A stretch of 5,760 nucleotides of DNA. Source: a virus. Shown here piece after piece: positions 1 to 5,760 of this stretch. The notes under the pieces are model-generated. The model had not been told where the DNA came from, did not search any database, and was given only the letters and a program-made list of their open reading frames with translations. A program made the translations under genes and the position numbers. Where the stretch lies: the IMG/VR virus record IMGVR_UViG_3300029391_000100; one strand, given 5' to 3'. The stretch's first letter is position 1, and every line of letters starts with the position of its first letter.

Positions 1-123
1 TGACACTAGGTAACTGTCTATAAAAACTACTTGTGAACCGTCTTTGCAAGCGAATTCCTTTACTTTGAAGTGCTGCCCTACTTTTTTGTTTGCGTCTGTG
101 TCCATGATATAGCTTTCAATCAT
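1..123. repeat. Terminal direct repeat, copy A; identical to 5638..5760 and marks the circular junction of a 5637-nt genome
   Basis: Base-by-base comparison of 1..123 with 5638..5760 shows identity over all 123 nt. The repeat runs to the end of the window, so it may be longer in the source contig. Confidence 0.9.
1..123 (-). CDS. Duplicate of the first 41 codons of the M15 peptidase gene, an artefact of the circular overlap (same gene as 5371..5760)
   Basis: The sequence is identical to 5638..5760. The ATG is the reverse complement of 'cat' at 121..123. The upstream in-frame stop TAA is the reverse complement of 151..153. Confidence 0.8.
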   Translation of the reverse strand, partial: MIESYIMDTDANKKVGQHFKVKEFACKDGSQVVFIDSYLVS

Positions 124-130
124 TTCGGTT

Positions 131-135
131 ACCTC
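131..135 (-). promoter_or_regulatory. Shine-Dalgarno GAGGT for the peptidase gene, 7 nt before the ATG at 123
   Basis: The minus strand reads 'gaaagcgaGGTaaccgaaATG'. Forward 'acctc' at 131..135 is the reverse complement of GAGGT. Confidence 0.6.
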
Positions 136-148
136 GCTTTCTATTGTG

Positions 149-177
149 GATTATACTATATATTTTGTCGTCTGTCA
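149..177 (-). promoter_or_regulatory. Consensus sigma70/sigmaA-type promoter on the minus strand: -35 TTGACA (177..172), 17-nt spacer, -10 TATAAT (154..149), preceded by an A-tract
   Basis: Forward 149..154 'attata' is the reverse complement of TATAAT. Forward 172..177 'tgtcaa' is the reverse complement of TTGACA. The spacer 155..171 is 17 nt. The minus strand upstream reads 'caaaccaaaaaacaa', which is UP-element-like. The -10 lies 25 nt before the peptidase ATG. Confidence 0.7.
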
Positions 178-196
178 ATTGTTTTTTGGTTTGAAT

Positions 197-210
197 GGCG
201 CTTTAGCGCC
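197..210. other. Short GC hairpin ggcgc-ttta-gcgcc between the Rep stop and the main promoter; weak or doubtful terminator
   Basis: A perfect 5-bp inverted repeat with a 4-nt loop is seen directly. On the minus strand it is followed by an A-rich rather than U-rich tract, so an intrinsic-terminator function is uncertain. Confidence 0.3.
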
Positions 211-269
211 TTTCCGTGCGTAGCGTATGCGGAGCTCGGATAATCCATTCCTTGTAAGCGCTGTGCGCG

Positions 270-1274
270 TCATACTTTTGGCTCACGCCACTTTTGTTTT
301 AGCTTGTCCTTTTCTTTTTGAATATTGAGATAGGTTTCATAATCCACGCTTGTGCTCTGTTCGAGATTGACCAAACTTTGTATTGCACTGCGTCTGCGTC
401 TGGCTCTAACCTCTCTCAGCTCGTCAGAATGTGCCTTAAAATAGCTTTCTTTGTCTTGGCTGGTATCTTTATCTAGAATCTTATCAAAATAGCGTGGAGG
501 CCTTTTTTCGCGTCCTCCTGCGCATATGATGCTATCTGTTTTTAAGATTTCATCTTTGTGCTCGTTTAGATATTTTTCGCCGATACCTTTCGACATGATT
601 CTAAACTCTGGTTCTCGACCTTCCATCCAGTATTTTACTGATTGTTCTGTCCCTATAGCTTTTTTGTTGACGTATTGTGCCACGTATGCGAAACTTCCCG
701 GTTGTGCTGGTGAAAAGTCTATCATGCCTTTGCCCCATATTTTTTGTAGCCACTCGCTTTTAAAATAGCTGTTGCCCTTTTGGTTTTTATACCATTGTGC
801 ATCAGGCGGTTTTAGTCCAAATACTATTGCATGATAGTGTGGTCTTTTTGTTCTGTCACCATATTCAGCCGCTAGGAAATATTTTATCGGCTTCTTGTAC
901 GCTTTCCGCAGCCGTTTTAGAAATAGCTGCACGTCTCGTTTGCTTACTGTCTGACTTTGTATGCTTTTGTATCCTTTGATGATTTCGCCGTAGGGTATAT
1001 GGTCGTCGTCATACGTCAGTGTTAGAAAAATCACATCGTCCCACTCTTTGGCTTCTAGCTCTATTCTGGTTGCCCATTGGTCTGCTATCTGTTTGCGGCA
1101 ATACTCGCATTTACCGCATGGTAACAATGCGAATTTTCCTTTTTTGATTCCGTCCATGATGTCCGCTTGCAGTCCTTGTTTTGATAGGTTTTCCAGACTT
1201 CCCCACAGTTTCGGTTTTTTCATATCCATTTGAAATACTAATGGTTTTGTACATGGCATTTTTGTTACCGGCAC
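270..1274 (-). CDS. Rolling-circle replication initiation protein (Microviridae VP4 / phiX174 gpA-like Rep). The probable true start is the ATG at 1259 (MPCTKPL...); the track start at 1274 is a GTG.
   Basis: Superfamily I Rep motifs are present: motif 1 FLTLTY, motif 2 HYHAIVF and motif 3 YVAQYVNKK with a double Tyr. The N-terminus has the Cys-rich segment PCGKCEYCR typical of gokushovirus VP4. Positions 1272..1274 are 'cac' (GTG), and the first ATG is the reverse complement of 'cat' at 1257..1259. The stop TGA is the reverse complement of 270..272. Confidence 0.9.
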   Translation of the reverse strand: MPVTKMPCTKPLVFQMDMKKPKLWGSLENLSKQGLQADIMDGIKKGKFALLPCGKCEYCRKQIADQWATRIELEAKEWDDVIFLTLTYDDDHIPYGEIIKGYKSIQSQTVSKRDVQLFLKRLRKAYKKPIKYFLAAEYGDRTKRPHYHAIVFGLKPPDAQWYKNQKGNSYFKSEWLQKIWGKGMIDFSPAQPGSFAYVAQYVNKKAIGTEQSVKYWMEGREPEFRIMSKGIGEKYLNEHKDEILKTDSIICAGGREKRPPRYFDKILDKDTSQDKESYFKAHSDELREVRARRRRSAIQSLVNLEQSTSVDYETYLNIQKEKDKLKQKWREPKV

Positions 1275-1334
1275 AAGCTTCCTTGTCTATCTTGTGCCGA
1301 TTGACACCTCGCTTCCTTTATATATTAACTTGTT

Positions 1335-1354
1335 GTAGTCGTAGTAGTAGTAGT
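1335..1354. repeat. Trinucleotide microsatellite (GTA)n: four perfect units at 1341..1352 plus imperfect flanking units
   Basis: Direct reading gives 'gtagtcgtagtagtagtagt'. Confidence 0.6.
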
Positions 1355-1521
1355 GTTGAAAGTGTTGAAAACTTGTTTTTTTAACGCTACTACGTTTATT
1401 TATTGCTTGTTTTCTTGTTAAAAATTTTGTTGAAAACTTGTTGAATTGTTGAATGTTCGTCATTTTGACGAATTTATTTGTGCAACTTGTTGTTGAAAAC
1501 CTGTTGAAAGTGTTGAAAACT
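1354..1521. repeat. Iteron array. Eight copies of TGTTGAA(A)(AC) (TTCAACA on the coding strand) in three clusters, including an exact 20-mer direct repeat. This is the probable Rep-binding and origin region.
   Basis: Units start at 1354, 1363, 1429, 1438, 1447, 1491, 1502 and 1511. The 20-mer 'tgttgaaagtgttgaaaact' occurs at 1354..1373 and 1502..1521. The flanking 'acttgtt' recurs at 1371, 1436 and 1485. The region lies in the only large noncoding stretch, immediately upstream of the Rep gene. Confidence 0.6.
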
Positions 1522-1561
1522 CAAGTTTTCCACATTCTCTATTTTCTGGATTATTGTTGTT

Positions 1562-1591
1562 AAAAAAAGGGGGATGTTTTACCATCCCCCT
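1562..1591 (-). terminator. Rho-independent terminator on the minus strand immediately after VP2
   Basis: A perfect 9-bp stem (1568..1576 'agggggatg' and 1583..1591 'catccccct') has a 6-nt loop. On the minus strand it is followed by a run of 7 U (forward A-run 1562..1568). The VP2 stop TAA is at 1601..1599. Confidence 0.75.
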
Positions 1592-1598
1592 TCCTTTC

Positions 1599-2471
1599 TT
1601 AGTCTCCTGTGTATGATTTTCCAGATTTGAATCCATCTATTAGTTTGCGTCTTCTTGCTGTCTTGTTGATAGTATCTTCTGCTATTTTGTCAACACCTTC
1701 TTTGGCTGCTTTACCAGCCTTTCCTACTGCGTCTTTCGCTGCTTTACCAGCTTTCGAAAGACCCGCGCCTAACTTGTTAGCTGCATAGCTGTATTGCTGC
1801 GCCTGTTTTGCGCTTGAGGTTGCCAGCTCGCTCGCTGCCTGTTCCCAGCTTTTCGCATTCTTAAACTGTTTTGCGCTGGTGGCCTGTTTTGCCAGGTTCA
1901 AGTATTTGTCTGCTAGCTCTGCTGTGTTGTTGCCGTATTCGTACATAGCGGATACACTTGCCGCTTGTGCGCTCTGTTGGTTATAACGTTGGCTTCCAAT
2001 GCTTGCAGATGCTCCCGATGGTGCGCTTGTTGCACCGTTGGTCGCTGCCAGAATAGGATTGATGCCCGCTGCAATCATGTCCTTTACGGTATCCTGATAG
2101 GCCGTTCCGCGCATTTCCTTTTGAAACGCTCGTTCTGCTGCTGCTTCTGCGCTGTTGTACTTCTTGGCGCTTGCTTGGCTTCCAGCATTCGCAAGGTTGC
2201 TCAGTAGCCCGCTCATCATTTGTAGTGCGTTTGCGGTGTTTACACTGCTTTGGTTACCAAATGTTGCAATGCCTGTTGGCGTGCTGATTTGTGTTGAACC
2301 TATCTGCTGTGGTGCTGTTACACTGCCGGTTGTGGTCTCGCTGCCGGTTGTGGTTTCGCTGCCTGACCCTTGGCTGTTTTTGGCGCTGCTCTGGTTACTG
2401 CTTGTTATGATGCCTGTTAACATGCTCAGCCCTTTCATGAGGGATGGCAAAAGCTTTAAGAATGTTTCCAT
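1599..2471 (-). CDS. Minor capsid / DNA pilot protein (gokushovirus VP2-like)
   Basis: The 290-aa protein is rich in Gly, Ser, Ala and Gln, with a moderately hydrophobic N-terminal segment (FLKLLPSLMKGLSMLTGII). It sits directly downstream of the major capsid gene, as VP2 does in Microviridae. The ATG is the reverse complement of 'cat' at 2469..2471. Confidence 0.7.
   Translation of the reverse strand: METFLKLLPSLMKGLSMLTGIITSSNQSSAKNSQGSGSETTTGSETTTGSVTAPQQIGSTQISTPTGIATFGNQSSVNTANALQMMSGLLSNLANAGSQASAKKYNSAEAAAERAFQKEMRGTAYQDTVKDMIAAGINPILAATNGATSAPSGASASIGSQRYNQQSAQAASVSAMYEYGNNTAELADKYLNLAKQATSAKQFKNAKSWEQAASELATSSAKQAQQYSYAANKLGAGLSKAGKAAKDAVGKAGKAAKEGVDKIAEDTINKTARRRKLIDGFKSGKSYTGD
2324..2364. 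repeat. In-frame 18-bp tandem duplication inside VP2 (two copies plus a partial third), encoding GSETTT-GSETTT
   Basis: 'ctgccggttgtggtctcg' (2324..2341) and 'ctgccggttgtggtttcg' (2342..2359) differ at one base, then 'ctgcc' follows. The protein reads ...SGSETTTGSETTTGSVT... Confidence 0.8.
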
Positions 2472-2472
2472 T

Positions 2473-2499
2473 CAAAAATAGCCCCGCTTTTGCGGGGCT
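2473..2499 (-). terminator. GC-rich hairpin with U-tract between VP1 and VP2. It is a candidate leaky intrinsic terminator and also sits between the VP2 Shine-Dalgarno and the start codon.
   Basis: The minus strand reads AGCCCCGC-AAAA-GCGGGGCT (8-bp stem, 2499..2480) followed by ATTTTTGA and then the VP2 ATG at 2471. Confidence 0.55.
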
Positions 2500-2500
2500 T

Positions 2501-2509
2501 CCTCCTTCC
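2501..2509 (-). promoter_or_regulatory. Shine-Dalgarno GGAAGGAGG for VP2, 29 nt upstream of the ATG in linear sequence and about 9 nt if the intervening hairpin is folded
   Basis: Forward 'cctccttcc' at 2501..2509 is the reverse complement of GGAAGGAGG. It overlaps the last VP1 codons, and the VP1 stop TAA is at 2512..2510. Confidence 0.5.
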
Positions 2510-4183
2510 TTAAATTCTTTCGATGCCCGGGATGCTGTAGATAGGCATTTCGCGGTACCAGTCTTCGGTGAAGTAGAAGTCACATAAGAACTGATGGCTT
2601 TTTGCGCTTGTTACTGCAATCGTTCGGTCAATGTTCTGTGTTCCTTCCTGTATCCACTCTGCTGAGAGACGCGGAAGCGCGTTATAATCGTCCGCATAGT
2701 GCCATGCATCCAAACTAGTCTTGTAGTTAGAACGCATTTCACCGGTTACGTAGGAAGGTTTGTAGCGGTAGTCTGCCCATGCTTCTTGATATCCAAAGAT
2801 TTCGTTATCTTCTGCCGTGCCCTGTGCATAGATTTCACGGTTATACACCGGCTGTTCACCCAGTGCTGCAAGTCTCGGGTCGTAGTAGGTGAATCGCCCG
2901 CCGCGTGTCCACTTTGTCGCAAGCCCTTGCTGGTAGCTGTGTTCCACTCGTACCACTGCCAGACCGATGATGTAGCCGTTTTCGGTCGCTGCATAGTCTA
3001 CCATTTGCTTGCTGCACGTGGTCAGGCTGTATGCTGCCGTATTGCCTAGTGCCTGACCGGTTGTCGTGTCCGTCTGGCTCGTCTGGACGACCTGATTTAC
3101 ATTGATTGCGATGCGTTGCCCGCCGATGTATTCAGGAATTTGAAGTCGGCTGTCTGGTGACGTTACGCCCCATGTGCCCGATAGGAATTCACGGTATCGC
3201 GTGCCGTTGCGTGCATCTGCCTCGAAGATGTGCTGCAGTGCGATGCTCATGCGTAAATCCTGAATGCTGATCGCGCTTACTCCGCTTAGGTCTGCGCCTA
3301 GATAAGCTATATCATCTACTTTTGAGTTTTTGTTATTGCTTCCAGTTACTAGTCCGGTTCCTTTTCCTACAGTGTCGTTTTCAATTGCTGGTGCGTATTC
3401 GCCTGCATTTGGTTGGTTAAAGTAGATTGCATCTTTTCCACCTGCTGTTCCGAATACGCTTAGTTCTCTGTTTTTGTACAGTCCAACTGGTGCATTGCCA
3501 GTCAGGCTGATTTCCACAGGGTCAGTTTTCAACGGCGAAGGCAAACAGGATGTGAAGTAGTCGTGGAATTTGCCTACCTTTGCCGGAAATCGTGCATATA
3601 AGCTTGCTTCGTTTGTGTTTGTCGTTAGATCCGGTCTGTTTACATAGTATTCTTTTGTATCGTTTCCGGGTGTTTCGTCAGTTCCTCCTTCATCGCTTTT
3701 TTTGTACCCCAGCATGAGCGGTGCTTCTAGGTTTTCATCTCTGAACCACTCGTTGTAAATCATGGCGTATGCGCGTGCTGGCAGCGCGTTGACCTTGATT
3801 TTATTTTTTACTTCGGTTGGCAGTCCGAAGTAGTCGCCTATACTGCCATTTACCAGACCGCTTTTGCCTCCGATTGCGCAAGTCGGTGTGCTGTATTCGG
3901 TCTTTTCTGCCCAGTAGTTTGTATCGTTCTCGCCAAACATGTTCTCCCAGTGCTCCCACAGCAGACGGCACGGAACAAAAAAGAAATAGGTATCCATGTA
4001 GCAGTTATCCATGATAGGATAGATGGGAGTACTCATTCGGATAAGGCCGTTAAGTTGTACTTTTGCGGTATCGCCCGGAAGCACCTCATCACAGTAGATA
4101 GGCACCAAATCGCCTTCGTTGATGGTCGTCAACAGCTGGTGACTTCGGTCAAATTTGCTTCGCGGTCGTTCCATTCGTGGCAC
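2510..4183 (-). CDS. Major capsid protein VP1 (Microviridae F-like, gokushovirus type). The start is ambiguous: GTG at 4183 or ATG at 4174 (MERPRSKFDRSH...).
   Basis: The 557-aa protein has the characteristic N-terminal signature RSKFDRSHQLLTTINEGDLVPIYCDEVLPGDT of gokushovirus VP1. Positions 4181..4183 are 'cac' (GTG), and the first ATG is the reverse complement of 'cat' at 4172..4174. No Shine-Dalgarno lies upstream of either start. Confidence 0.9.
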   Translation of the reverse strand: MPRMERPRSKFDRSHQLLTTINEGDLVPIYCDEVLPGDTAKVQLNGLIRMSTPIYPIMDNCYMDTYFFFVPCRLLWEHWENMFGENDTNYWAEKTEYSTPTCAIGGKSGLVNGSIGDYFGLPTEVKNKIKVNALPARAYAMIYNEWFRDENLEAPLMLGYKKSDEGGTDETPGNDTKEYYVNRPDLTTNTNEASLYARFPAKVGKFHDYFTSCLPSPLKTDPVEISLTGNAPVGLYKNRELSVFGTAGGKDAIYFNQPNAGEYAPAIENDTVGKGTGLVTGSNNKNSKVDDIAYLGADLSGVSAISIQDLRMSIALQHIFEADARNGTRYREFLSGTWGVTSPDSRLQIPEYIGGQRIAINVNQVVQTSQTDTTTGQALGNTAAYSLTTCSKQMVDYAATENGYIIGLAVVRVEHSYQQGLATKWTRGGRFTYYDPRLAALGEQPVYNREIYAQGTAEDNEIFGYQEAWADYRYKPSYVTGEMRSNYKTSLDAWHYADDYNALPRLSAEWIQEGTQNIDRTIAVTSAKSHQFLCDFYFTEDWYREMPIYSIPGIERI

Positions 4184-4199
4184 TTGCGCGAAATGGTTT

Positions 4200-4646
4200 T
4201 CACTGTTTCGGTTCGTTTTCCTTCACCTCTTCCCTCTTTTCTTCCTCTTTCTGCTTCGGCTGTTCGTCTTTCTGCTTCGGCTGTTCGGTCTGTTGCATCT
4301 GTTTCAGCTGTTCCAGTGTTTCGGCTGCAGCCTCGGCTTTTTCGTGCATCGTCATGATGTCTTTTGGCATATTTTCGAGGTCGGTGCCTTCGGTGTATAC
4401 CATGCTTTTAGCTTTGATGCTGGTATCCCCCGCTTCCAGCCGTGCGATTGCGCTTGCAAGGTCGTAGCCCTCGCCGGCTCGTTGGATTTTTTCGTATGTG
4501 TTCTCGTTCGGCTGCTCGATGTAGTCGGTTGTGCCGTTTGGTTGCTTTACCGCTTTCCACGTTGGCGCGGTCGTGCTGCCCGGATTGTTTGGTACTCTCT
4601 CGGTCGTCATACCGTAGAAGCGTACCATCACCTCAGGATTTAACAT
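4200..4646 (-). CDS. Hypothetical 148-aa protein with a Lys/Glu-rich low-complexity C-terminal tail. It is a candidate internal scaffolding (VP3-like) protein by position immediately upstream of VP1.
   Basis: It has a strong Shine-Dalgarno: the minus strand reads 'GAAGGAGGcagccaATG'. The C-terminus is ...QTEQPKQKDEQPKQKEEEKREEVKENEPKQ. Assignment as VP3 rests on position and composition only, because I could not recognise a family signature. Confidence 0.6.
   Translation of the reverse strand: MLNPEVMVRFYGMTTERVPNNPGSTTAPTWKAVKQPNGTTDYIEQPNENTYEKIQRAGEGYDLASAIARLEAGDTSIKAKSMVYTEGTDLENMPKDIMTMHEKAEAAAETLEQLKQMQQTEQPKQKDEQPKQKEEEKREEVKENEPKQ
4241..4282. repeat. In-frame 21-bp tandem duplication (two copies, 41 of 42 nt identical) in the tail of the 148-aa ORF, encoding EQPKQKD/EQPKQKE
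   Basis: 'ctttctgcttcggctgttcgt' (4241..4261) and 'ctttctgcttcggctgttcgg' (4262..4282). Confidence 0.8.
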
Positions 4647-4887
4647 TGGCTGCCTCCTTCAGGTCGATGAGCCGTGTGATGTGTTCAGGCATTGCCTCGC
4701 TCATGTAGCCTGTTTCTGTGTCGAATTCGCCCAGTTCTACTAGCGAAATATCTTCAATTTCGCTGGGCTTGCTCTCGTTGGCCTTCCATCGTGCCGTTCT
4801 AACTGCCTGTGCTCGGTTGTTCTGCAAGAATGGCTGTGAGTAGCCGTTGGTGAGCGAATCGTGGAATGAATAGAATTTCAGTTTCAT
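4633..4887 (-). CDS. Hypothetical 84-aa protein of unknown function; it could be VP5-like or a second scaffold candidate
   Basis: It has a Shine-Dalgarno: the minus strand reads 'taAAGGAGaaaaacATG'. Its 3' end overlaps the next ORF's start by 14 nt (ATGTTAAATCCTGA), consistent with translational coupling. No transmembrane segment is present. Confidence 0.55.
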   Translation of the reverse strand: MKLKFYSFHDSLTNGYSQPFLQNNRAQAVRTARWKANESKPSEIEDISLVELGEFDTETGYMSEAMPEHITRLIDLKEAANVKS

Positions 4888-5016
4888 GTTTTTCTCCTTT
4901 ACTTTTCGTCTTTGTTTGCGTCCTTCAGAGCGTGGTAAATTTCGTCGAGCTTTTCAAGAATGTTCATCATTAGTGCAATTGCTTCTTTAACGTCCTTGAC
5001 TTTGATTAACGCCATT
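4888..5016 (-). CDS. Unlisted 42-aa ORF (MALIKVKDVKEAIALMMNILEKLDEIYHALKDANKDEK) with a consensus Shine-Dalgarno
   Basis: The minus strand reads 'gAAAGGAGGcgaattaATG', giving 7-nt spacing. The stop TAA lies immediately before the Shine-Dalgarno of the 84-aa ORF. It is below the length cutoff of the supplied track and was found by manual translation. Confidence 0.5.
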
Positions 5017-5046
5017 AATTCGCCTCCTTTCTTTGGTTTGCATCGC

Positions 5047-5163
5047 TTACAGTCGGATACCGCCTCGTGAGATTTTCGGTCGGACGTTGATGTCTTTTAC
5101 TTTCTTTGCAGTCTGAGTAAATCGTTTCTGGTCGCCTTTACCTGCTCCGCTTCTATGTGCCAT
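5047..5163 (-). CDS. Unlisted 38-aa highly basic ORF (MAHRSGAGKGDQKRFTQTAKKVKDINVRPKISRGGIRL). It is a candidate DNA-binding/packaging protein analogous to phiX174 J and gokushovirus ORF8.
   Basis: Manual translation of the minus strand gives about 11 Lys/Arg/His in 38 residues, a size and charge like phiX174 J (38 aa). It has a strong Shine-Dalgarno: 'gcgAAGGGAGtaaaacaATG'. It sits among the structural genes. Confidence 0.55.
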   Translation of the reverse strand: MAHRSGAGKGDQKRFTQTAKKVKDINVRPKISRGGIRL

Positions 5164-5167
5164 TGTT

Positions 5168-5368
5168 TTACTCCCTTCGCATTAGTTCTAGTTCAATGTC
5201 GTTTATAAAGCTTTTTATTAGCCAAGTTTCGTTTACTATCTTTTTAGCGTCCTCGATGTTTGACACTTTTTTAAGCATTTTGTAATTGTCATCAATTTCT
5301 TTGTACTTTCGTTTGAGTAGAATTTCTAGTGCTTCTTTGGTCTGGTCTCTTACGTTCCATGTTTTCAT
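5168..5368 (-). CDS. Hypothetical 66-aa charged helical protein. The track's 83-aa version (to 5419) is probably an over-extension.
   Basis: The internal ATG at 5368..5366 is preceded by 'AAGGGGGTGtaacaATG'. The longer version would overlap the peptidase gene by about 50 nt and has no Shine-Dalgarno. The peptidase stop TAA (5373..5371) lies 2 nt before this ATG. Confidence 0.5.
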   Translation of the reverse strand: MKTWNVRDQTKEALEILLKRKYKEIDDNYKMLKKVSNIEDAKKIVNETWLIKSFINDIELELMRRE

Positions 5369-5370
5369 TG

Positions 5371-5760
5371 TTACACCCCCTTTCTGTATTTTTTGGTGCG
5401 TGTGTCGATGTGTACCCACGTGTCATATACGATAATGCCGCATTCATTCGGAATGATTGCATTCAGTTCGTTGGCGATTTCTTTTGCTTTCATTCCATTT
5501 ACTCGAATGTCCGCTGCCATTCCTCGCATGTGATATGAGTACTTTGCACCGCCTACCGCTTCATTCCTTGTTGGTGTCCGGTATCCACTGTTGATGATGA
5601 CAGGTTTTCCGATTTTGTTTCTGAGGATGTCTAGGATTGACACTAGGTAACTGTCTATAAAAACTACTTGTGAACCGTCTTTGCAAGCGAATTCCTTTAC
5701 TTTGAAGTGCTGCCCTACTTTTTTGTTTGCGTCTGTGTCCATGATATAGCTTTCAATCAT
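5371..5760 (-). CDS. Peptidase M15 family zinc D-Ala-D-Ala carboxypeptidase-like peptidoglycan hydrolase; putative lysis enzyme
   Basis: The 129-aa protein has zinc-binding signatures SYHMRGMAAD (H-x6-D) and a downstream VHID, plus SGYRTP, all characteristic of M15/VanY-like peptidases. The ATG at 5760..5758 is the first ATG after the upstream stop, once the circular wrap is taken into account. Confidence 0.8.
   Translation of the reverse strand: MIESYIMDTDANKKVGQHFKVKEFACKDGSQVVFIDSYLVSILDILRNKIGKPVIINSGYRTPTRNEAVGGAKYSYHMRGMAADIRVNGMKAKEIANELNAIIPNECGIIVYDTWVHIDTRTKKYRKGV
5638..5760. repeat. Terminal direct repeat, copy B (circular overlap)
   Basis: Identical to 1..123. Confidence 0.9.

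Follow-up and report, generated by a model that had tools for sequence, protein, structure and literature searches.

The IMG/VR virus record IMGVR_UViG_3300029391_000100, a stretch of 5,760 nucleotides (nt) that was analyzed at its full length and is called the window below, raises the question of whether its matching ends close a complete microvirus genome, and what the peptidase gene lying across those ends and the sequence around it represent. We conclude with high confidence that the window is the complete circular 5637-nt genome, carried with a 123-nt assembly overlap, of a mammalian gut gokushovirus (Microviridae, Gokushovirinae) whose life cycle is presumably lytic. Two parts of it stand out: a three-hairpin, non-coding element about 85 nt long, and a segment running from this element through an M15 peptidase gene that appears to be a mobile cassette.

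Positions 1–123 and 5638–5760 of the window are 100% identical at a spacing of 5637 nt, giving a circle of that length; the direct repeat, contained in the 5' end of the peptidase gene, is an assembly overlap. A first-pass annotation had proposed this circle from the end identity, and the exact repeat is now joined by independent evidence. The end-to-start junction is covered in a single alignment by 91 related IMG/VR contigs, and KX513876.1 (Human gut gokushovirus SH-CHD13), deposited as circular and also 5637 nt long, is continuous through it. Terminal repeats of their own are present in 61 of 97 related contigs, and a human-gut metagenome contig of 5662 nt (L126) is colinear with the whole window at 86.7% identity. 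The length and the end overlap fit a small (about 4.4–6.3 kb) circular Microviridae genome, strandedness and physical circularity being properties that a sequence does not reveal. The open reading frame (ORF) map and the Pfam and PHROG searches placed every credible gene on one strand, as had been claimed; this is the minus strand of the window, which is shown as the complement of the coding strand. Read along the coding strand, the genes are Rep/VP4, M15 peptidase, a 66-amino acid (aa) ORF, a basic 38-aa ORF, a second 38-aa ORF, VP5, VP3, VP1 and VP2. The ORF map also agrees with the order first described, namely peptidase, four small ORFs, scaffold, VP1, VP2 and Rep, where the four small ORFs are the open frames 5419/5368..5168, 5163..5047, 5015..4899 and 4887..4633. 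In 64–97 related genomes, the 66-aa ORF and the two 38-aa ORFs are conserved with no or almost no in-frame stops.

The alternative that the 123-nt repeat is a true tandem duplication, or that the window belongs to a prophage or a larger linear locus, is in our judgment extremely improbable. It could draw on six metagenome contigs in which related microvirus DNA is joined to bacterial genes, one of them (L137) in the window's own clade, and on two contigs of 10–11 kb that hold two microvirus genomes head to tail. However, the phage part lies at the contig end in all six bacterial-joined contigs, the phage parts of L120, L148 and L160 are 99.9–100% identical to free circular contigs, 3.0 kb of L137 is 99.9% identical to the contig L079, and the junctions fall at no fewer than three phage positions, cutting VP2, GH8 and SpoIIE genes. 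Because the junctions vary in position and cut genes, we read these contigs as assembly or amplification chimeras and not as prophages; they could also be rare integrations. All six are human-gut contigs, the remaining two (L149 and L173) match at 80–90%, and the bacterial genes joined include CbiM/LarC, FeoB/PTS, a hybrid two-component regulator, PGM with a SpoIIE fragment, and GH8. The equal unit length of the deposited circular genome and the 91 contigs crossing the junction likewise argue against a linear locus.

Temperate enterogokushoviruses carry a dif-like XerCD site and have prophage copies in bacterial genomes. The window shows neither property: it contains no dif-like XerCD site (best match with 11–12 mismatches over 28 positions), and a scan of 185,579 species genomes with a pattern of the three-hairpin element found no prophage copy, the single match being an 851-nt scaffold. 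This scaffold (NZ_JACWEU010000120.1), from an Acinetobacter lwoffii assembly, carries the element at 106 bits under a covariance model and is probably a contamination of that assembly. The lack of a dif-like site and of a bacterial genome with the element speaks against integration, and a free circular genome with lytic-only growth is what we infer for the window.

The gene products identify the virus family. VP1 (2510..4183, minus strand, as are all genes below), the 557-aa major capsid protein, matches PF02305 Phage_F at 5e-148 over residues 6–553 and phrog_514 at 5e-200, and it contains the KFDRSH...EVLPGDT signature on which the earlier identification had relied; 3448 phage records match the protein. 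Rep/VP4 (270..1274) is a rolling-circle initiator of 334 aa with a GTG start at 1274, the ATG at 1259 being the start annotated in KX513876; it matches PF23343 (1.3e-20) and phrog_942 (4e-107). Its motifs are CxxCxxC (residue 53), FLTLTY, HYH (residue 146) and YVAQYVNKK (residue 197), so that the three rolling-circle motifs noticed at first reading are present, with paired tyrosines. Both a Microviridae capsid protein and an HUH Rep are thus encoded. VP2 (1599..2471), a DNA pilot protein of 290 aa, matches phrog_18604 at 9e-127 and several pilot-protein PHROGs; it had been described as of low complexity, and it has a GSETTT tandem repeat near the N-terminus and an 18-nt tandem repeat at 2323–2358. 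VP5 (Phage_ORF5; 4633..4887), a DNA-binding protein of 84 aa, matches PF20577 (6.5e-14) and phrog_1670 (1.6e-17), is 37.5% identical to phiMH2K VP5 with no match in phiX174, and retains 69–100% aa identity across the window's own clade. A VP3-type internal scaffolding protein candidate of 148 aa (4200..4646) lies directly upstream of VP1, has a tail that is acidic and rich in lysine, and is 87.5% identical to the equivalent ORF of KX513876.

The gokushovirus-like character first suggested for the window holds on pairwise identities, gene content and gene order, with Alpavirinae and Pichovirinae set apart by description rather than by reference sequences or a formal tree. Over its full length, VP1 is 37–40% identical to the capsid proteins of Chp2, phiMH2K and SpV4, versus 22–24% locally to phiX174 F; Rep is 33% identical to Chp2 ORF4 and phiMH2K VP4 and 22% to phiX174 A. 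The window further resembles these three gokushoviruses in VP2 (43–44% local identity, 44% for Chp2 VP2) and VP5 (27–37%), in a J-like small basic protein, and in having no spike or external-scaffold genes. In contrast to them, its genome is about 1 kb larger, has the gut-type order VP4-VP5-VP3-VP1-VP2, and carries the M15 peptidase cassette and the three-hairpin element. The family-level plan is that of phiX174: the capsid protein has the F-type fold, the HUH Rep has the YxxxY active site as YVAQYVNKK, all coding is on one strand, and there are a pilot protein and a small basic protein for packaging. A BLASTP search with the window proteins gave nothing for phiX174 G or D at E ≤ 1 and no homologue of E, C or K, which sets the window apart from Bullavirinae. 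The gokushovirus gene set is present as VP2, VP4, VP5 and the VP3 candidate, and its order is the one reported by Roux et al. 2012 for human-gut gokushoviruses (PMC3394797). That study gives VP4-VP2-VP1 as the core order of Pichovirinae and describes Alpavirinae as lacking recognizable VP3 and VP5 (PMC3394797). The window instead has VP4...VP1-VP2, and its VP5 and VP3 families are recognized, unlike the Bacteroidota prophages of Alpavirinae, in which only VP1, VP2 and VP4 are recognizable. The close relatives of the window are all filed under Gokushovirinae.

These relatives are numerous. KX513876.1 and MT121961.1 are 86–87% identical to the window across some 90% of the genome, colinear contigs with 85–88% identity number in the dozens in IMG/VR and human-gut metagenomes, and the clade of the window comprises at least 35 IMG/VR contigs with Rep proteins 93–97% identical. 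The lineage is one of well-sampled gokushoviruses of human and pig gut. KX513876.1, with 86.8% nt identity over 93% of the genome, has proteins 96% (Rep), 92% (VP2), 84% (VP1), 90% (VP5) and 83% (peptidase) identical to those of the window, and shares the order VP4-peptidase-(small ORFs)-VP5-VP3-VP1-VP2, the element after Rep and both terminator hairpins; it differs in having an unrelated 68-aa ORF upstream of its peptidase gene and no 66-aa ORF downstream. Within VP1, residues about 161–320 form a hypervariable insertion that is mostly gapped against phiX174 F and only 40–57% identical to KX513876; Roux et al. 2012 (PMC3394797) described this surface-loop region in gokushoviruses. The first-pass annotation had held the gene order and the M15 peptidase to be worth placing phylogenetically. 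Both are present as described, but neither is new, as both are in GenBank (KX513876.1 and KX513864.1, each with an annotated "peptidase M15") and in the literature (PMC3394797, PMC9239249). The M15_3 peptidases of gut gokushoviruses, their horizontal origin and their proposed lysis role were reported by Roux et al. 2012 (PMC3394797), and the topic was taken up again in 2020 and 2022 (2022: PMC9239249).

What sets the peptidase region apart is how unevenly it is related to other genomes. The genomes bearing the three-hairpin element fall into two clades, A (the window's) and B. Clade B proteins are about 39% (Rep), 40% (VP1) and 48% (VP2) identical to those of the window, but the peptidases are 64–93% identical (47% in one contig). 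A 751-nt segment (270->1/5637->5157), comprising the element, a promoter, the peptidase gene and the 66-aa ORF, is 91–94% identical to a clade B contig, L088, which outside this segment is essentially unalignable to the window (VP1 41%, Rep 39%). Clade A relatives, by comparison, are only about 80–85% identical to the window in the segment, with KX513876 at 80%. The segment is bounded on the left by the conserved element and on the right by the beginning of the J-like gene, with the 66-aa ORF as its rightmost part. This hydrophilic ORF (5168..5368) begins with an ATG 3 nt past the peptidase stop, the mechanical ORF running from a GTG at 5419. Its 64 full-length homologues in relatives are all free of in-frame stops, and no Pfam or PHROG family and no counterpart in KX513876 was found for it. 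These identities point to the segment from the element to the 66-aa ORF as a mobile cassette that has been exchanged between distantly related gokushoviruses.

The same pattern would arise if the cassette region were an assembly chimera of two co-occurring microviruses, joined at the conserved element, which is a sequence common to both clades. The IMG/VR contig L091 (10.7 kb) is exactly such a join, a clade B genome fused to a clade A genome. Nevertheless, three independent contigs (L126, L147 and L086) are colinear with the window over both cassette junctions, the identity to L088 is 91–94% and not 100%, and the right junction lies at a site where the two clades share no nt similarity. Because these three contigs share both junctions, natural recombination is the reading we adopt, and a chimera is most unlikely. 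Like L091, the contig L156 (11.3 kb) contains two different microvirus genomes head to tail; both contigs are probably assembly joins through the shared cassette, real heterodimers being possible. An exchange of this kind has a precedent in Kirchberger et al. 2022 (PMC9239249), who found a peptidase region of about 700 nt common to otherwise very different microviruses at 72% identity. The exchange described here also links distant microviruses through the peptidase region, but it is much more recent (91–94% vs 72% nt identity) and its boundaries are mapped.

The element at the left edge of the cassette spans 185..270 on the minus strand, its first base being also the final base of the Rep stop codon TGA (270–272). 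Its hairpins are GCGC-aca-GCGC, an interrupted stem of 6+2 bp (tCCGaGC...GCaCGGa) and GGCGC-taaa-GCGCC. The 86 bases (270..185) are 82–96% identical in 12 GenBank gokushoviruses, most of which are otherwise unalignable to the window at the nt level. A 27-nt pattern of the element matched 97 contigs in IMG/VR, 72 in metagenomes and 1 among bacterial genome contigs. Altogether, the element was found in about 170 gut gokushovirus contigs of the two very different clades, invariably after Rep and ahead of the promoter and peptidase gene. The three-hairpin structure is 99.8% paired across 85 distinct copies, compared with 11–44% for shifted controls. Six pairs have changed on both sides, and the central helix shows 75 double changes with no single-sided or broken pair. 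None of 500 shuffles reached the observed scores, and RNAalifold independently gave the same structure. Mean pairwise identity is 89% in the element, whereas the neighboring peptidase gene, compared over 55 genomes, reaches 60% at third codon positions and 84% at the first two. Given this difference between the element and the peptidase third positions, recent transfer alone does not explain the identity of the element, which is under purifying selection. In the last helix, the outer pair is G:T 13 times and A:C once, which weakly suggests that it is the coding strand that folds.

A 32-aa ORF overlapping the Rep stop was considered as an explanation of the element and rejected: the length of the core varies (73, 74 or 75 nt), a start codon is missing from 61 of the 85 copies, and substitutions on one side of a stem are matched on the other. 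The varying core length and the copies without a start codon show that the element is non-coding for protein. An Rfam scan of the window at E ≤ 1 gave no match within 150–300 and three weak chance hits elsewhere, and a literature search on the element and on KX513876 turned up no description. That it is at once real, selected, structured and previously undescribed is a claim to which we give a little under an even chance.

Among the functions that could be assigned to the element, we tentatively favor a host-recognized signal on the packaged strand for priming or origin of complementary-strand synthesis, by analogy with other microviruses. In Microviridae the packaged strand is the coding strand. 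The complementary-strand origin of phiX174 contains a primosome assembly hairpin and that of G4 a three-hairpin primase site; to our knowledge, no origin has been defined for these gokushoviruses. Conserved intergenic hairpins are also described in reekeekee- and roodoodooviruses (PMC9865509). Like all of these, the element is intergenic on the presumed packaged strand, folds into several stable hairpins, keeps its loops and linkers invariant and shows compensatory substitutions. Unlike them, it has no sequence similarity to these signals, is accessory, and is tied to the promoter and peptidase cassette. A covariance-model search did not find the element in KX513864 (Rep 81% identical), Chp2, phiMH2K, SpV4 or phiX174; for this reason it is accessory and unlikely to be a universal viral-strand origin. 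A shared motif upstream of Rep in both clades was also considered as an origin candidate, but none exists, and clade B has no VP2-Rep spacer. With similar tentativeness, the element may give the Rep message a structured 3' end, or insulate or regulate the promoter that follows; because it would be transcribed as the tail of the Rep message in the window, an RNA role is equally possible. A recombination-promoting site or cassette border is a distinctly less probable function.

Downstream of the element, at 150..178 on the minus strand, lies a sigma-70-type promoter, TTGACA-17 nt-TATAAT, which matches 12 of 12 consensus positions and is the sole such site in the window; the chance expectation for a perfect site, estimated from the base composition of the coding strand, is about 0.001. 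Next come a GAGG ribosome-binding site and, at 123 (= 5760), the ATG of the peptidase gene. A promoter with at least 10 of 12 matches no more than 160 nt downstream of the element is present in 93% of element-bearing relatives, versus 4% of background windows. Between the VP1 stop and the VP2 ATG (2480..2499, minus strand), a GC-rich hairpin, AGCCCCGC-aaaa-GCGGGGCT, is followed by ATTTTT. This candidate for a leaky terminator or attenuator is unchanged in KX513876 and kept in KX513864 through compensatory changes. The 20-nt GC hairpin and T-run separate the VP2 Shine-Dalgarno sequence AAGGAGG, on the 5' side, from the ATG, on the 3' side of the hairpin (2472–2509, minus strand). Besides attenuation, the hairpin could place the VP2 ribosome-binding site beside the start codon. 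One nt past the VP2 stop (1599–1601), an intrinsic terminator at 1555..1597 on the minus strand, AAGGGGGATG-gtaaaa-CATCCCCCTT followed by T7, has a 10-bp GC-rich stem of −23.7 kcal/mol and is conserved in KX513876.

The AT-rich spacer between VP2 and Rep contains six copies of TGTTGAAA (TTTCAACA on the coding strand) at 1354..1518 on the plus strand, against 0.28 expected, and none of 200 shuffles reached six. Clade B also has an array of this 8-mer, lying immediately upstream of the conserved element and pointing the other way with respect to the genes. The array may consist of protein-binding sites or form part of a Rep promoter or origin region; we take the 8-mer to be somewhat like a DnaA box (TTTTCAACA vs TTATCCACA). 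Two 58-aa ORFs in this spacer were rejected as genes because half of the homologous stretches in relatives contain in-frame stops.

These signals suggest a transcription plan of two units. The promoter at 178..150 would drive a long unit through the M15 peptidase gene, the 66-aa ORF, the J-like gene, the 38-aa ORF, VP5, VP3 and VP1 and on into VP2. The hairpin and T-run after VP1 would lower read-through into VP2, and the strong intrinsic terminator would close the unit past VP2. Rep would be expressed as a separate unit from the AT-rich VP2-Rep spacer. Such a plan would mirror the transcription of phiX174, which, as is generally known, combines promoters with leaky terminators. Rep, as an HUH protein with two tyrosines, would carry out rolling-circle replication, and VP1, VP3, VP2 and the small basic protein would build and fill a T=1 capsid. 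This small basic protein of 38 aa (5047..5163) is a candidate J- or ORF8-like DNA-binding (packaging) protein. It has 97 homologues without stops and is 37% identical to a putative DNA-binding protein of phiMH2K (E = 0.012), and phiX174 gave no match. The second 38-aa ORF (4899..5015), with a predicted amphipathic helix, is present in both gokushovirus clades; it is identical to its KX513876 counterpart at 36 of 36 aligned residues and 66–79% identical in clade B, an unusually high conservation for a protein of the lysis/accessory region without an assigned function.

The peptidase itself (5371..5760; on the circle 123->1 and 5637->5371) is a 129-aa M15_3 peptidase, one of the LAS-type zinc peptidases of clan MD, and a putative endolysin. 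The presence of an M15 peptidase had been claimed before, and it is confirmed by PF08291 (9e-24; 84 bits against a cut-off of 23.2), phrog_894 (endolysin; 6e-42) and the zinc ligands H77, D84 and H117, which lie in the motifs H77-x6-D84 and H117-x-D119; a further motif, SGYR, is invariant in 32 homologues. Outside the microviruses, its closest homologues (40–47% identity) occur in Vibrio, Klebsiella and E. coli phages; they are M15 proteins of a single domain, some of them annotated as endolysins. PF08291 peptidases of human-gut gokushoviruses, with the same proposed lysis role, were found by Roux et al. 2012, but most of those were affiliated to Faecalibacterium (PMC3394797), whereas the nearest non-microviral proteins here belong to phages of Gammaproteobacteria. 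The enzyme most likely cleaves the peptide stems of peptidoglycan and thereby frees the progeny. It would replace the E-type lysis gene of phiX174, which is absent here, so that lysis would proceed by an acquired peptidase and not by an overprinted MraY inhibitor.

Several points weigh against this account of a lytic gokushovirus with a peptidase for lysis. The end overlap is an assembly signature, a kind of evidence that reveals neither the strandedness of the molecule nor its circularity in nature. VP3 scores 24.6 bits (3e-5) on PF09675 Chlamy_scaf, 0.4 bits under the Pfam cut-off of 25, and no convincing Rep promoter was identified in the AT-rich VP2-Rep spacer. The homologues of the peptidase in Vibrio, Klebsiella and E. 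coli phages give a weak hint of a Gram-negative host. A firmer assignment from this family was rejected: it has 1590 relatives in the database, and the top 120, each with 83% identity or more, come almost entirely from contigs of microvirus size. A host assignment from prophages was rejected, as the sole scaffold is probably a contamination and the chimera flanks are both Firmicutes-like and Bacteroidota-like. No holin, signal peptide or transmembrane segment was found in the coding-strand genes (19-aa windows, mean hydropathy > 1.6), the sole window above 1.6 (1.61) lying in an alternative frame within VP1. The small ORFs adjoining the peptidase gene are hydrophilic and thus do not form a holin-endolysin cassette with it. 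Because of this negative search, the proposed endolysin has no known export route. Finally, the structure model of the peptidase is poor (pLDDT 63), and a fold search gave no hit at E ≤ 0.001.

Part of this evidence would suit a peptidase other than a classical endolysin, either a VanX- or VanY-like enzyme working on intracellular peptidoglycan precursors or one with a role in entry. The missing holin, signal sequence and transmembrane segment agree with such a role. So does the single match among solved structures in the PDB, the Streptomyces D-Ala-D-Ala carboxypeptidase 1lbu (2.8e-5). VanY and VanXYc are among the weak fold matches, together with 1lbu, Hedgehog-N and the RB49 L-Ala-D-Glu peptidase. 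None of these fold matches is significant, however, and they merely agree with the expected clan, while the nearest non-microviral homologues are the single-domain M15 proteins of double-stranded DNA phages named above. We know of no room for an enzyme in a T=1 capsid, which we count against an entry role. A non-endolysin function is accordingly rather improbable, and lysis through peptidoglycan cleavage remains the role that we propose.

As a genome, the window is a further species-level variant, about 87% identical to its nearest relatives, of a heavily sampled gut lineage, and is in that respect of low importance. The parts worth further work are the conserved element and the cassette that it borders. 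The element is a concrete candidate for a replication or regulatory signal. The cassette would represent a clean, recent and boundary-mapped exchange between distant microviruses, a group usually described as showing little mosaicism.

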